Position numbers and translations under genes: made by a program. The notes beneath the pieces were generated by a model. It did no database searches. It was not told where the DNA came from and saw nothing but the letters and a program-made list of their open reading frames with translations. A DNA stretch of 18,488 bases from a virus. Every line of letters begins with the position of its first letter. Position 1 is the stretch's first letter. Location: the UHGV virus genome UHGV-1333851; one strand, 5' to 3'. This document shows positions 5,605 through 14,293 of this stretch, piece by piece.

Positions 5605-5625
5605 AAGTTACTTTGCATACCATTA
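5605..5625 (+). promoter_or_regulatory. Candidate late-type promoter upstream of lydA-like gene
   Basis: GTTACTTTGCATACCAT: a TTTGCAT element abutting a TANNNT hexamer (TACCAT). The same arrangement occurs upstream of lyz. Possibly a late-activator-dependent promoter. Confidence 0.25.
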
Positions 5626-9305: not shown

Positions 9306-12293
9306 ATGAGCTTAAGCGATCAGGTGGTAATGGCCACCAGCATAGAAACGCTGATCGAGCTGCTAAAGAACCTGCCCGATTATGGGCGGGTTTCGTATGT
9401 GGTGACAGCGAAGGGAGACGAGGTAAAAACAGCGTTTGATATCGTCGATGCCTCAGCTCTTTTGGTATCCAATACTCTGGATGGGAAAATTAATCCTGAC
9501 TATCCCCAGGAACTTCAACCGCGCGACCGGACCCGCGCATCCAGCCTTCTTCAGGTTAACCAGATATCCAAAGATTTGCGGCCTGCTCAGCTTACCGACT
9601 CCGGTTTATCCAGCCATGGCGCGCCGATAATTGGTGAGGACAATGCCGTTGAGTCAGGTAATGGGCGGACCATGGGGATCATTAAAGCCTATCAGGACGG
9701 TAATGCGGATCGGTATCGGGAGTACCTGATTGAACATGCGACCGAATTCGGCATACGGCCTGAAAAGGTTGAATCAATGACGGCTCCGGTACTGGTGCGC
9801 CGCCGGTTAACGAAGGTTGACCGTGTTCAGTTTGCCAAGGACTCAAATATTTCTGATCTCCAGGAAATGGCAGCCAGTGAAAAGGCTTTTGTTGATGCCG
9901 ACAGCATAACTCCGGCGATGATGGCGCTTTTTAACCCGTCAGAAAGCGGAGATCTGCTTAGCCGCAGTAATGACGCGTTTATTCGCGGATTTATGACGCA
10001 AGTTGGTGCCACACAGGCGGCTGGCCTTGTAACTGAAGATGGGCGACCAACACGGCAACTTGTAGACCGTATACAAAACGCGATCTTTGCCAAGGCATAT
10101 AAGGATGCGCGCCTGGTAAGGATGGTTGCAGAAGAACCTGATCCGGATATGCGTAATGTTCTGACGGCGCTTAATGCGGCAGCCAATGATTTTGTCCAGA
10201 TGCAGGCTTTATCAGGAGAAGCGCACAAGCAGGCTGTGACAACTATTGTTGATGGCATTGAGACAGCGGATAGCCTCGATAAAAAGGCGCTGGCAGCATT
10301 GAAAGATGCGGTAGACCTGGTAAGGCAATCGAAGGAGTCAGGCCAGCATATTACCGATGTTATTGCTCAGGGGGATATGTTCAGCGAAACGGCCCCGGAA
10401 GTGAAAGCACTCGCGTTGTTCATCGTCGCGAATAACCGTAGCGCGAAGCGTATGGCCACCGCCTTTAAGTTGATGGCTCAACGTATCAATGATGAGTTAC
10501 AGCACCAGGGCCAGGCGCTGGGGGATATGTTTGGCGGCGGCGATGTGTCGTTACAGGATATCCTTCGCCAGGTGTCTCAGGAACTGGAAAACGAAGGCAT
10601 GCAAGGGATATCCGGCGGTCTTTTCGAGTCCGTTTCCGGCGGTAGTTACAACGGTGTTGCTCCGTATACCAGTTTGCTATTACATCGGGCATCCGGCATC
10701 AAAGACATTATTCATCTGATCAGGCTGCTTTCCCGCACAGATCCCCAGGATGAACAGCTTGTACAAGTGCTTGCGCATTTTGTTCGAATGCCTGTTGCCG
10801 ACGTGAAAAAATGGTGCCGATTATTCGGTATCAGCAATTCGTTACTTCGCGGCTTGTTAAATCACGCATCCTCCCTTGGGCGCGATGGCTTTGACGAGAT
10901 AGCGCAGGCGATAAAAAACGGAGATATGCCACCAGCTATTGACTGGTTTTCCATTCGCCCAACCAGGGTGAAAGCATTCCTTAGCGCGGCGCATTCGGCA
11001 TCACCATTGGCAGAAATGGTTCAGAGGTTGTCGCTCATATTCACAGACCATAGCGCGTTGGGTGATCTGACTCTGGACGAGATGAAAGAAGCCTCCATTC
11101 AGTGGGCCGATCAACAAAATGAGGTTAACTCAGACTTCTTGCCAGCATTCAGGAAGGCCGTTAGTAAAGTGGATGATGCCCGTGGAATTCTGAAGGCATT
11201 TAAGGCATTGCAAAGTCGGGTTAATAAACATGTCGGTGATATCGATGGGGTAACGGCGGAAGGCAGGGATATCCTTAAAGAGCACGGCATAACGCCAGAG
11301 TTTATTGATGAGATCAGGACGGATATGCAGCGTGAGGTCGTATCGTCCCTGCAAATCGTAGCCAGAGCGTTGGCGGATGCTAATCCGAAGAGTGCGGCCA
11401 TTGTTAACCGGGTTATTGGTGATATTGAAGCATCGGAGGGCATGGGGGCGCTGAAACTCTTCCTTTCGCGAGCGTTTAATCCTAACGGCAATATTCTCCC
11501 CAGCATTATTGGTGAGGCTAAAAAGCATGTCAGTGAAGAAGAACTTGAGCAGCTTAACCAGCTACTCAATCGATTTTCATATATCCCGCAGAAACGCTGG
11601 CAAATGAATCAGCGTAGTATGGATTCGGTCTACGAGAAAGTGTTATCTGCCATGAACAGTGCGATCGCCAACTCATCCGTATCAGAAGAAAAAGCTCTTG
11701 AGTGGGCCGACTCTTTTATCACGGAAGAAGTGGAAGAAGCCCGCGCTGGACAGAATGGTGGAATAGACCTGCGCAAGGAACTTGCTGATATTTATCGCCT
11801 GACCGGCGGGAAAATATCAACCTTATCAAGGGTAATTCACCACAAGGGTAGGGCGTATGCAAATCTTAATGGTGTTGTTGCTGTCGATTTGCACGATGAA
11901 AATGCAAATGCACTGTGGCACGAGCTGGGTCATCATCTTGAGTACAGTAACCCGGGTTTGTTAGAGAAAGCCAGGTCATTCCTGAAGGCCAATGTTGAAG
12001 GGGATAAGCCATCTTTCGTTAATATTGGTGGGCGTGGCAAGCCTGAATGGTGCTTCAGATCTCGATTGAGTGATATTTATATGGCGAAGGTATACCCGCC
12101 TGTCTCAGTGAGTAATTCTGGTAAATTTCGACACAAATCTCCGACAATTTCCAAAACGTCAGCAACGGAAGTATTCTCTATGGCTCTTCAGTTGTATCAT
12201 GACAAAGAGGCCGCTGCCGCATCACTGATGAATGGTGACGGATTGCTGGAACTGTTATTAGGTGTGGCAAAGGAGCTAAATAATGCAGATTAA
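9306..12293 (+). CDS. ddrB: DdrB-like large virion-associated multidomain protein with a zincin HExxH motif
   Basis: 995 aa. HExxH motif near the C-terminus (ALWHELGHHLEYSNPG). N-terminal region has a possible ParB/Srx-like signature (ESGNGRTMG), unverified. Last large gene of the Dar-like operon. Confidence 0.5.
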   Translation: MSLSDQVVMATSIETLIELLKNLPDYGRVSYVVTAKGDEVKTAFDIVDASALLVSNTLDGKINPDYPQELQPRDRTRASSLLQVNQISKDLRPAQLTDSGLSSHGAPIIGEDNAVESGNGRTMGIIKAYQDGNADRYREYLIEHATEFGIRPEKVESMTAPVLVRRRLTKVDRVQFAKDSNISDLQEMAASEKAFVDADSITPAMMALFNPSESGDLLSRSNDAFIRGFMTQVGATQAAGLVTEDGRPTRQLVDRIQNAIFAKAYKDARLVRMVAEEPDPDMRNVLTALNAAANDFVQMQALSGEAHKQAVTTIVDGIETADSLDKKALAALKDAVDLVRQSKESGQHITDVIAQGDMFSETAPEVKALALFIVANNRSAKRMATAFKLMAQRINDELQHQGQALGDMFGGGDVSLQDILRQVSQELENEGMQGISGGLFESVSGGSYNGVAPYTSLLLHRASGIKDIIHLIRLLSRTDPQDEQLVQVLAHFVRMPVADVKKWCRLFGISNSLLRGLLNHASSLGRDGFDEIAQAIKNGDMPPAIDWFSIRPTRVKAFLSAAHSASPLAEMVQRLSLIFTDHSALGDLTLDEMKEASIQWADQQNEVNSDFLPAFRKAVSKVDDARGILKAFKALQSRVNKHVGDIDGVTAEGRDILKEHGITPEFIDEIRTDMQREVVSSLQIVARALADANPKSAAIVNRVIGDIEASEGMGALKLFLSRAFNPNGNILPSIIGEAKKHVSEEELEQLNQLLNRFSYIPQKRWQMNQRSMDSVYEKVLSAMNSAIANSSVSEEKALEWADSFITEEVEEARAGQNGGIDLRKELADIYRLTGGKISTLSRVIHHKGRAYANLNGVVAVDLHDENANALWHELGHHLEYSNPGLLEKARSFLKANVEGDKPSFVNIGGRGKPEWCFRSRLSDIYMAKVYPPVSVSNSGKFRHKSPTISKTSATEVFSMALQLYHDKEAAAASLMNGDGLLELLLGVAKELNNAD

Positions 12294-12594
12294 AATCGCA
12301 GCGCCATTAGGCGGAGATGCCATTATCGAATTTGATGATAATGAAGAAGTTTCCGGGCGTTTAAGCATTATCTCCGGTGACATTACCGAGGACATGATCG
12401 CTGAAGCCATAGCTGGGGCAAATCCCAATAGCTATATGGGATTCGTTAACACCCTTGATGCTCCCGCAAGTGATGTTCTCCGAACGCTGCATCTTTACGC
12501 TGGCTGGTTTGTTGATTGGCCAGTAGTAGATGGTGGCGATGAGGACGACGACGACGATGATTTTGGTGATCATGTAGACCAGATCGTATATTGA
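12283..12594 (+). CDS. Small highly acidic protein with a poly-Asp tract
   Basis: 103 aa. Start overlaps the ddrB-like stop (ATGCAGATTAA). C-terminal DGGDEDDDDDDFGDHVDQIVY. Followed directly by a strong terminator. Confidence 0.5.
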   Translation: MQIKIAAPLGGDAIIEFDDNEEVSGRLSIISGDITEDMIAEAIAGANPNSYMGFVNTLDAPASDVLRTLHLYAGWFVDWPVVDGGDEDDDDDDFGDHVDQIVY

Positions 12595-12596
12595 AG

Positions 12597-12628
12597 AAAT
12601 CCCGCCAATCGGCGGGATTTTTTTTAAT
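12597..12628. terminator. Rho-independent terminator, bidirectional between convergent operons
   Basis: AAATCCCGCC-AATC-GGCGGGATTT, a perfect 10-bp stem, followed by a T run. Sits between the plus-strand stop at 12594 and the minus-strand stop at 12624. Confidence 0.75.
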
Positions 12629-13412
12629 CGCTTTCCACTTCTTCCGTGGTGTTTTCTTGCAGTTCTGTTAATGCAGCACGACATAGGTTCCGGGCATTGG
12701 CTATAGCCACACTTTTGACTTCATCCGTCATCGTGCAGGTAATGTACTGATCGAGTTCTTCAGCGCGGATGATGCTTTTGCCAATCAGAAACTGTATTTG
12801 CCAGAGCAGATCGGCATCCATAATCAGAATTTCTGCCGGGCCTTCAGGGCCAGCCGGGAAGGAAACATAAGACTGTTTGCCCAGGCCGATAACTCGACAA
12901 CTTGCTTCAAGAATTGCGCGCTTGAGGTCTGACTTTGTAACGGAAACAGGTTGGTTTTCACCAGTGATTATGCCGTTGACATGGAAGTGGAAGGGCATGT
13001 AGCTTGAAATACGCTCTACTTTCCACACGCCAGCAAGCGATCCTTCATGCAGCACAATGGGGGTAACCGCGAGTTTCATCTCACCATATAACTGCTGGCA
13101 GATAGCTGGATTGCTGAATACATCCAAAGGTTCACACTCAAACAGCGGCGCAATCTGCATGAGGTCCATCATGGTCATACCAGGGGTACGAGCAGTAATG
13201 AATCTGCGCATGCCAGTATCCATTGTGCGCCAGATAGCTACACCATGCTTTTTGCTCACTTCTTCAGTAAAGCCAAGGTGGCACATGATGGTTTTTTCGA
13301 TAGCCAGATCAGAGATCGAAACCTTTTCGCCAGGCACACCATCATTATTGATGGTCACTTCGACACTCTGACCATTACGCAGGCGGTATTGAATTGCTTT
13401 AGTATTTTCCAC
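12624..13412 (-). CDS. Hypothetical protein, function unknown
   Basis: 262 aa. GTG start at 13412 with GGAGTG 8 nt upstream; start lies 7 nt after the stop of the preceding gene. No motif I can assign. Confidence 0.55.
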   Translation of the reverse strand: MENTKAIQYRLRNGQSVEVTINNDGVPGEKVSISDLAIEKTIMCHLGFTEEVSKKHGVAIWRTMDTGMRRFITARTPGMTMMDLMQIAPLFECEPLDVFSNPAICQQLYGEMKLAVTPIVLHEGSLAGVWKVERISSYMPFHFHVNGIITGENQPVSVTKSDLKRAILEASCRVIGLGKQSYVSFPAGPEGPAEILIMDADLLWQIQFLIGKSIIRAEELDQYITCTMTDEVKSVAIANARNLCRAALTELQENTTEEVESD

Positions 13413-13418
13413 GTTAAA

Positions 13419-14096
13419 TCACTCCACTACAAACCAGTCACATGCCAGTAAGTCGCCTACAGAAGGAACCCACGGAACAACTACACCTTGTGCATTTTTT
13501 AAGGCGAAATAAGCACCATACGGAACGAGGTCGCCGGGGAAATATCCCTTAATGGCTTCCATTCGTGCCGGGTACTGTCCTTCAGGAACCAGCCAGCAGA
13601 ATTGGTTTTCGCCGTTCCACCCGCGTCGAGCAACTTTCTTGCCATCCTTCAGCCACATCAGCGCGTCAGAAAAGTCGGCTGCTTCAAGGTCGATTTCTTC
13701 TTGTAGAGTAGCGATACCGCCAGCAGAAATAGTTACGTCCCTGGCTGTAATGAATGTCACCCCATTGTGACCTTCAATGCTGAGCAATGCCCCATTTTCG
13801 AAGAAGTCGTTAGTCCGACTAAAGCCTTCTTCAAATGTTTTTTCTGGTGAATAGGACAGAGATCCGTCCTCATAAGCGACCAGATATCCGCCAATTTCTG
13901 GTCGGTGTTTTTGCAAAAACATTTTATCAACATGGACTTTTACCCCTTCTGGCTCAACGACTTCGATGTTGCAAAGAAGGACCACATCCATTAGGGCGAT
14001 AATTTCGATATCTTTGATTTTTGAGGCACGAACTGTTTTATGGCTTTTGTATTTTGGAAGTGCCGTCAAAAGCTCTTTCGTTGTCATGTTATTCAT
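13419..14096 (-). CDS. Two-domain protein with a C-terminal DUF2829 (Tad2-like) domain
   Basis: Start placed at the ATG at 14096 (AGAGGAAA 5 nt upstream), not the ORF-track GTG at 14264, whose extension is R/K-rich and lacks an RBS. The C-terminal ~85 aa (FSDALMWLKDGKKVARRGWNGENQFCWLVP…PWVPSVGDLLACDWFVVE) match the DUF2829 signature as I remember it. Confidence 0.6.
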   Translation of the reverse strand: MNNMTTKELLTALPKYKSHKTVRASKIKDIEIIALMDVVLLCNIEVVEPEGVKVHVDKMFLQKHRPEIGGYLVAYEDGSLSYSPEKTFEEGFSRTNDFFENGALLSIEGHNGVTFITARDVTISAGGIATLQEEIDLEAADFSDALMWLKDGKKVARRGWNGENQFCWLVPEGQYPARMEAIKGYFPGDLVPYGAYFALKNAQGVVVPWVPSVGDLLACDWFVVE

Positions 14097-14293
14097 AGTC
14101 TTTCCTCTGCTTAAAACCTGATGTATTGCGCCTTCAGGTGGGGCAGGATTGTTTTCCCACCAGCGAAAGCAATATCTCGGGGTGTTCTTTTCGTGAAAAG
14201 CGCGTGCCATTGCCAACTTTGGCGTTTGTTTGCGAGTTCGTGCTTTTGTCGGCGTCTGGACCACCGCTTTTCTTTCAGTCGTTTTTTACACAT

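Follow-up and report, generated by a model that had tools for sequence, protein, structure and literature searches.

Hxr, a strongly acidic 103-residue protein encoded at 12283–12594 (+ strand) of the virus genome UHGV-1333851, may be a small protein that partners specifically with the C-terminal half of the large protein DdrB (its variable middle and its zincin-like metallopeptidase domain), made alongside DdrB; this is the reading that we favour, with a confidence slightly short of even. The window referred to below is the whole stretch of 18 488 nucleotides that was analysed. To judge from its place in the tightly packed series lydA, lydB, hdf, darA, ddrA, ddrB, hxr, which runs from a late promoter up to a terminator, hxr closes the late darA (defence-against-restriction) operon. 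The region 12100–12700 matches 19 phage records at 95–99% identity, including P1, P7, SJ46 and RCS47, and by this sequence evidence the source of the window is a P1-like phage (Punavirus). The open reading frame (ORF) is the ortholog of P1 hxr (P1_gp021, YP_006490.1). It occupies the same place in the P1 reference genome, directly after ddrB and with the same 11-nucleotide (nt) overlap, and the window and P1 proteins have two differences, N55D and one extra Asp. Residues 1–103 match PHROG 2292 (unknown function) end to end with an E value of 1e-59, so the first-pass annotation, a model's description of the letters without database searches, was wrong in finding no known family for the protein. 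The gene instance in the window is thus already catalogued and not new; what our analysis adds is that its annotation is wrong, that the protein has a two-part orphan fold, and that across Enterobacterales phage-plasmids it is linked to DdrB's C-terminal half. The two genes at issue are as follows.

9306–12293, + strand: ddrB, 995 residues (Pfam ddrB-ParB, E value 2.2e-39; P1 annotation)
12283–12594, + strand: hxr ortholog, 103 residues plus stop (P1 Hxr match; PHROG 2292; intact in 80 of 80 loci; ratio of nonsynonymous to synonymous polymorphism, pN/pS, 0.17)

Every locus examined that encodes the C-terminal end of DdrB carries a Hxr-type acidic ORF directly after it, of 97–109 residues (184 residues in one tandem duplicate) and with an overlap of 1–17 nt. 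The loci behind this statement are L003–L006, L087–L091 together with L096, L097–L103, L106 and 80 loci from IMG/VR, the last being those in which the DdrB C-terminus is 93–100% identical to that of the window. Every Hxr homolog with a readable neighbourhood (L003–L006 and L097–L103) has a ddrB-type gene directly upstream, which overlaps it by 8–17 nt; on long contigs this is a ddrB-ParB gene of about 930–1015 residues, and on short contigs the ORF is cut by the contig end. The reverse search, a scan with a DdrB profile of one genome per species, returned ten loci. All six with full-length DdrB (L087–L091 and L096, from source records that are E. coli-like or from Serratia, Citrobacter and Rosenbergiella) have an acidic ORF of 98–107 residues with a net charge of −14 to −21 that overlaps the stop codon. 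The remaining four (L092–L095, from Enterobacter BRE11, two Pantoea and an Erwinia), in which DdrB is the ParB half only (443–460 residues), are without any Hxr-type ORF. A Chimaeribacter fragment (L106) encodes a DdrB C-terminal domain only 32% identical to that of the window, which is still followed, with an ATGA overlap, by a 109-residue ORF with a net charge of −17.

The two proteins also diverge together. Identities to the window in six comparisons are listed below for Hxr, for DdrB residues 831–995 and for DdrB residues 1–440.

L004: Hxr 40%; DdrB 831–995, 50%; DdrB 1–440, 91%
L005: Hxr 35%; DdrB 831–995, 47%; DdrB 1–440, 61%
L089: Hxr 18%; DdrB 831–995, 32%; DdrB 1–440, 69%
L090: Hxr 20%; DdrB 831–995, 35%; DdrB 1–440, 68%
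L091: Hxr 44%; DdrB 831–995, 45%; DdrB 1–440, 62%
L096: Hxr 19%; DdrB 831–995, 29%; DdrB 1–440, 58%

Because Hxr identity parallels that of DdrB residues 831–995 and not that of residues 1–440, the C-terminal half of DdrB and hxr thus appear to form one evolutionary module. The short DdrB of L092–L095 ends at about residue 440, the point at which conservation collapses in full-length DdrB. This suggests that the N-terminal part with its ParB domain can stand as a module by itself, and the long DdrB may be a fusion. A decayed relic of the locus was found on a chromosomal contig of Rosenbergiella australiborealis (L105, 6001–6800), where a fragment of the DdrB peptidase is followed by a deletion and frameshift and then by a remnant of hxr, with housekeeping genes and an MqsA-like antitoxin gene as neighbours.

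DdrB itself consists of an N-terminal DdrB-ParB domain (residues 36–167), a poorly conserved middle (about residues 441–830) and the C-terminal zincin-like metallopeptidase domain, in which the motif WHELGHH occupies residues 871–877 (nt 11916–11936) and the HExxH core is invariant in seven lineages. The metallopeptidase assignment has been described previously, together with a packaged, processed form of 76 kDa that probably arises by self-cleavage (PMC5512222). The C-terminal domain has no match among PDB sequences, and a word-indexed protein search with its profile gave mainly fragments. The products of the darA operon known to lie inside the head are Hdf, DarA, DdrA and DdrB (PMC9024508, PMC12810830).

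The mechanism that we propose starts from two signals in the window.

5605–5623, + strand: late promoter LPdar, with −22 box AAGTTACTT and −10 box TACCAT, identical to the annotated P1 LPdar
12270–12275, + strand: Shine–Dalgarno (SD) sequence AAGGAG for hxr, read from the sequence, within the last ddrB codons and 7 nt before the ATG

The function of LPdar is taken from the P1 annotation, which sets the promoter ahead of lydA-lydB-hdf-darA-ddrA-ddrB-hxr, and a scan around hxr (11800–13600) found no promoter-like site. The ATG of hxr (12283–12285) lies inside ddrB, with an 11-nt overlap that ends at the ddrB stop (TAA, 12291–12293). Together with the SD sequence, this overlap gives a layout set for translational coupling, in keeping with the overlap reported by the first-pass annotation. 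As P1 annotation and the conserved promoter suggest, hxr would be transcribed late from LPdar with the genes of the packaged Dar proteins. Ribosomes ending ddrB would restart at the overlapping hxr start, to which the overlap and the SD sequence within ddrB point, and Hxr would therefore be made beside DdrB and in proportion to it. The α/β domain of Hxr, with its invariant loop PNS..G.VNT and R67, would then dock on the C-terminal half of DdrB, a step for which the strict co-occurrence and correlated divergence argue. More speculatively, the polyanionic tail of Hxr might mask a surface that is basic or binds nucleic acid, or might screen the peptidase, and DdrB might in this way be kept soluble or inactive until processing to the 76 kDa form and loading into the procapsid. 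What the data show is the gene and its constraint, the overlap of start and stop, the place in a late operon, the pattern of co-occurrence and the two-part build of the protein; that translation is coupled, that Hxr binds DdrB and what its tail does are the parts that we infer.

The full translation of the ORF, from its ATG start, is MQIKIAAPLGGDAIIEFDDNEEVSGRLSIISGDITEDMIAEAIAGANPNSYMGFVNTLDAPASDVLRTLHLYAGWFVDWPVVDGGDEDDDDDDFGDHVDQIVY, and its C-terminal end is DGGDEDDDDDDFGDHVDQIVY. With 18 Asp, six Glu, one Lys and two Arg, the protein has a net charge of −21 and a computed isoelectric point (pI) of about 4.05, which is the floor of the tool used; the first-pass annotation was therefore right about the acidity of this ORF. 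It had also named absence or frameshift of the ORF in close relatives as grounds for refutation, and these do not hold: the gene is intact in all 80 IMG/VR loci. Protein lengths are 101–106 residues in the 78 loci caught by the start pattern, the other two carrying a Q2R start that escaped it. Pooled pN/pS is 0.17 for codons 1–82 over 23 distinct alleles, and distant relatives keep Hxr homologs in the same position at about 20–45% identity. Since the ORF is intact throughout, is under such constraint and has remote homologs in the same position, hxr is far more than a chance reading frame. We give almost no credence to the alternative that the ORF is no functional gene, being a chance ORF or a remnant: the few frameshifted or truncated versions that could be cited for it (P0005, P0006, P0008 and P0009) form clusters of only one or two sequences, against 848 in the intact cluster, length differences come in whole codons, and even homologs at about 20% identity retain the position, and the SD sequence and the overlap are conserved. 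An antisense ORF at 12361–12684 (− strand) was dismissed, because it runs through the terminator and the signal of selection sits in the hxr frame.

Among close alleles most of the variation falls in the tail, where the Asp run ranges from about four to eight residues. The run (D88–D93, nt 12544–12561) is a GAC/GAT triplet repeat, and its length changes are always in frame among nearly identical phages, a pattern that suggests slippage, either tolerated or selected. A single alternative tail was seen among the 80 loci, DDDDDEE[VG]FSDETVNQLLY.

Beyond close relatives, a small family whose members are mostly 96–105 residues long was recovered by searching exhaustively with a profile and by a further search that was word-indexed; its members are 30–46% identical to the window protein. 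Named hosts are Klebsiella, Citrobacter, Cronobacter, Enterobacter, Salmonella and Rosenbergiella, and many members lie on contigs of about 80–94 kb, the size of phage-plasmids. The Serratia and Chimaeribacter versions escape a simple hidden Markov model search or barely reach its threshold; profile–profile alignment to the family with hhalign (probability 88%, E value 3e-6) indicates that these acidic ORFs are remote Hxr homologs. Weak HMMER matches to P0022, P0024 and P0026, each over several stretches, were judged spurious, as these are large repeat-rich or unrelated multi-domain proteins (with SprB/DUF11 repeats, a surface Ig-like domain protein and a DUF3854 protein). In L097 (6001–6555) a tandem-duplicated Hxr of 184 residues follows a DdrB of normal length; its first copy ends in a short acidic linker and its second in a full poly-Asp tail.

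Structure prediction, another of the steps proposed at the outset, gave a β-rich α/β domain followed by a disordered tail. The two parts map to the window as follows.

12283–12528, + strand: Hxr globular domain, residues 1–82, predicted order β1-β2-β3-α1-loop (PNSxxGxVNT)-α2-β4-WP
12529–12591, + strand: Hxr disordered polyanionic tail, residues 83–103, net charge −11, no Lys or Arg, Asp run D88–D93, hydrophobic tip IVY

The AlphaFold2 (AF2) model, computed from a 22-sequence alignment, has a mean predicted local distance difference test score (pLDDT) of 74.6, and the five models agree; ten-residue blocks score about 66–88 over residues 1–80, and residues 83–103 are mostly below 50. The predicted elements are β1 (2–6), β2 (12–16), β3 (28–32), α1 (36–44), α2 (62–71) and β4 (76–78), and a run with a shallower alignment gave the same topology. 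Across the 22 aligned members G53, V65, L66, R67, W75, W79 and P80 are invariant, and the polar loop PNSxxGxVNT is nearly so. In all 22 members the tail has a net charge of −7 to −14 and contains neither Lys nor Arg, and it is otherwise free in sequence; the globular part carries −3 to −10 (−10 in the window), and whole proteins range from −11 to −22. Of the 21 net negative charges of the window protein, 11 reside in the predicted disordered tail. The C-terminal tip is (I/V)VN in most members and IVY in the P1 group only. Searches with Hxr found nothing in Pfam (E ≤ 0.1), in NCBIfam or among PDB sequences (E ≤ 10), and neither its sequence nor its predicted fold was found to resemble a solved protein, DNA mimics included.

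These results bear directly on the name of the gene. In the P1 record hxr has been annotated since 2004 as a 'possible repressor; homolog of Xre', a label that derives from 28% identity to an Xre phage repressor across about 58–80 residues and that has been propagated into SJ46 and other later records. That alignment is the one point in favour of an Xre-like transcriptional repressor, an identity that we regard as effectively refuted and to which we assign a vanishingly small probability. Neither HTH_3 nor any other helix–turn–helix (HTH) family is detected in Pfam (E ≤ 0.1) or NCBIfam, and the solved Xre/Cro-type structures are among the PDB sequences that give no match at E ≤ 10. Xre domains are five-helix bundles. 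The predicted fold of Hxr opens with three β-strands and has only two short helices. A pI of about 4 with a net charge of −21 is, moreover, incompatible with DNA binding, and hxr is the 3′-terminal gene of a late structural operon and does not sit beside an operator.

The first-pass annotation had likened the protein to the DNA mimics Ocr and ArdA. Small size, extreme negative charge and an anti-restriction gene context are indeed shared with Ocr (T7 gp0.3) and ArdA; similarity to known mimics was not found, and it is the charge alone that gave rise to the idea. Ocr and ArdA fold rigidly, spread their charge over a surface that resembles DNA, and are produced early or upon entry. Hxr differs from them in having an unrelated, orphan predicted fold, about half of its charge on a tail predicted to be disordered rather than on a rigid DNA-shaped surface, and a late operon. 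A free polyanionic mimic or anti-defence effector, blocking a DNA-binding host enzyme such as a type I restriction–modification (R-M) complex, RecBCD or a further defence nuclease either late in infection or after delivery by the virion, would account for a net charge of −21 in 103 residues and for a tail that conserves its charge and not its sequence. It would also suit the location of the gene in an anti-restriction operon, the fast evolution of Hxr relative to the DdrB N-terminus, as in an arms race, and the varying length of the Asp run among near-identical phages. We nonetheless consider it unlikely. Without similarity to a solved structure or Pfam family, Hxr has none to Ocr, ArdA, Arn or Ugi; its conserved positions are hydrophobic or polar and form no acidic array; and it goes missing along with DdrB's C-terminal half. 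Expression from a late operon, furthermore, means that an unpackaged mimic would come too late to protect incoming DNA, and the P1 virion proteome paper is silent on Hxr. Because it is the polar loop and the Arg that are conserved rather than an acidic surface pattern, a specific protein partner would fit better than generic mimicry. A broader proposal, possible but in our view doubtful, is that Hxr is the founding member of a fold class with a polyanionic tail, which would either work in trans on a polyvalent virion protein, for example by inhibiting or escorting the DdrB peptidase and so timing when DdrB processes itself and enters the capsid, or be a new DNA-mimic anti-defence effector delivered with the Dar proteins.

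Delivery raises the question of packaging. Hxr could be a minor internal head or ejection protein of the Dar assembly that is loaded with DdrB and set free in the host cell, with its acidic tail as the signal for loading or ejection. The head-internal location of the other operon products listed above is consistent with this, as are the example of DdrA, which is also strongly acidic and is packaged (PMC9024508), and the fairly conserved hydrophobic tip (IVN or IVY). Against it, Hxr is mentioned neither in the text of the paper describing 27 P1 virion proteins nor in one of its supplementary files (PMC9024508). The absence is weak evidence, also where mimicry is concerned, because that study required at least two unique peptides and Hxr has only three tryptic sites; the peptide IAAPLGGDAIIEFDDNEEVSGR would suit targeted proteomics (parallel reaction monitoring, PRM). 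We judge this alternative to be distinctly improbable as a separate explanation, and it overlaps with both the DdrB-partner and the DNA-mimic readings. Elsewhere in the literature searched, hxr was found only in gene tables, one of them from a genome-wide CRISPRi screen in which P1 hxr, like other dar genes, was non-essential for plaque formation (efficiency of plating 1.6 and 1.2; PMC10695390). The 2026 paper on the DarA–Hdf structure, which counts six Dar proteins, does not mention Hxr (PMC12810830).

Three further systems offer comparisons. In P1, the gene ulx (L108, 2996–3436, − strand) lies directly downstream of darB, the gene of a giant packaged Dar protein, and encodes a 146-residue protein with the acidic end EEVDDQDYEFESYDLEVE; Ulx resembles Hxr in being a small protein with an acidic C-terminal tail encoded directly after such a gene. 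It is a virion protein listed as aiding the localisation of DarB (PMC9024508), and we count the parallel in favour of the DdrB-partner reading. Homology between the two was rejected (hhalign probability 0.8%), and Ulx is detected in virions, whereas Hxr goes unmentioned in that study. Acidic small proteins or tails recur in the Dar gene set, in Hxr, Ulx and DdrA. A second resemblance is to the acidic tails of single-stranded DNA-binding proteins (SSBs; E. coli and P1 SSB, ...DFDDDIPF; T7 gp2.5), which are likewise disordered Asp/Glu runs with a hydrophobic end; the P1-type SSB in the window, 1.7 kb away, ends in MDFDDDIPF. The SSB tip needs a terminal Pro-Phe. Hxr, in contrast, mostly ends in IVN or VVN (IVY in the P1 group only) and has no oligonucleotide-binding (OB) fold, and SSB-tail mimicry was rejected, since the terminal residues of Hxr are not conserved as aromatic. 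The third comparison is with the immunity proteins of polymorphic toxins, in which a small acidic ORF overlapping the stop of a peptidase-ended gene, strict co-occurrence and co-divergence are all matched; the logic differs in that nothing points to toxicity of the DdrB peptidase or to its inhibition by Hxr. The main text of the polyvalent-protein paper that defines the domain mentions neither Hxr nor immunity proteins (PMC5512222).

Several points weigh against a partnership of Hxr with DdrB. The correlation of identities comes from six comparisons that are not independent, and it would look the same if the 3′ part of ddrB and hxr were inherited as one recombination block. The joint loss of the two could be explained by one contiguous deletion or module swap, and three of the four loci with truncated DdrB clearly belong to one lineage. 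The Hxr tail and the DdrB C-terminal domain show no evident complementarity of charge, as that domain ranges from weakly basic to mildly acidic (net charge −5 to +6). The analogy with Ulx is architectural only, because Ulx and Hxr are not homologous. Finally, in the parts available to us of the cited Dar studies (PMC9024508, PMC12810830), Hxr is not named as a Dar component.

The 3′ boundary of the operon is formed by a hairpin.

About 12593–12625, strand not assigned: intrinsic terminator, hairpin with core stem AAATCCCGCC / GGCGGGATTT and loop AATC, followed by eight T

The hairpin and its U-run, three bases 3′ of the hxr stop, fold with −21 kcal/mol (z = −4.77; none of 200 shuffles as good), and hxr is, as first described, the last gene of the anti-restriction (darA) operon before a strong terminator. 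The terminator is absent from the output of a simple consensus scan; the hairpin was confirmed by RNA folding. It abuts the 3′ end of a convergent gene (12624–13412, − strand), and it may be bidirectional and serve that gene too. P1 differs here, having isaB and IS1 directly downstream of hxr; the window, like SJ46, has the terminator and the convergent isaA-like gene.

Comparison with L004, L005, L097, L098 and L101 suggests that a cargo hotspot lies between ssb and the terminator of hxr, as the content of this stretch (about 12624–14290 in the window) differs among P1-like elements. It holds an isaA-like and a Tad2-like gene in the window, IS1 in P1 and nothing in L004; L098 has an Arc-like gene there, and an OmpD-type porin occupies it in L097 and on a mcr-1 plasmid of Klebsiella. 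The ORF at 13419–14264 (− strand, 281 residues) has a C-terminal Pfam Tad2-like (Thoeris anti-defence 2) domain (E value 2.5e-22), and it is a candidate anti-Thoeris gene on a P1-like phage; the same gene is labelled 'hypothetical' in Salmonella phage SJ46. Residues 60–320 of P1 IsaA (320 residues; L001, 4600–7163) match a 262-residue ORF of the window with 96.6% identity, and the 65 residues at its N-terminus align with the beginning of the Tad2-like ORF at 84.6% identity. P1 IsaA would thus seem to have arisen by a deletion that fused two genes, both intact in the window (12624–14264, − strand), and P1 appears to have lost most of the Tad2-like gene.

The Dar system of P1 is the textbook case of anti-restriction proteins packaged in a virion and is currently described with six components. 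P1-like phage-plasmids are common in clinical Enterobacterales. Across these phage-plasmids hxr has been kept beside full-length ddrB under a misleading 'repressor' label; the Xre annotation copied through the databases should be dropped, and the gene offers a lead for those who work on the Dar system. If Hxr does found a new fold class, in either of the two versions considered, a seventh component would be added to the P1 Dar system; as a DNA mimic it would represent a new anti-defence fold, and if it is a partner of DdrB, it would bear on how large multi-domain ('polyvalent') virion proteins are processed and loaded.

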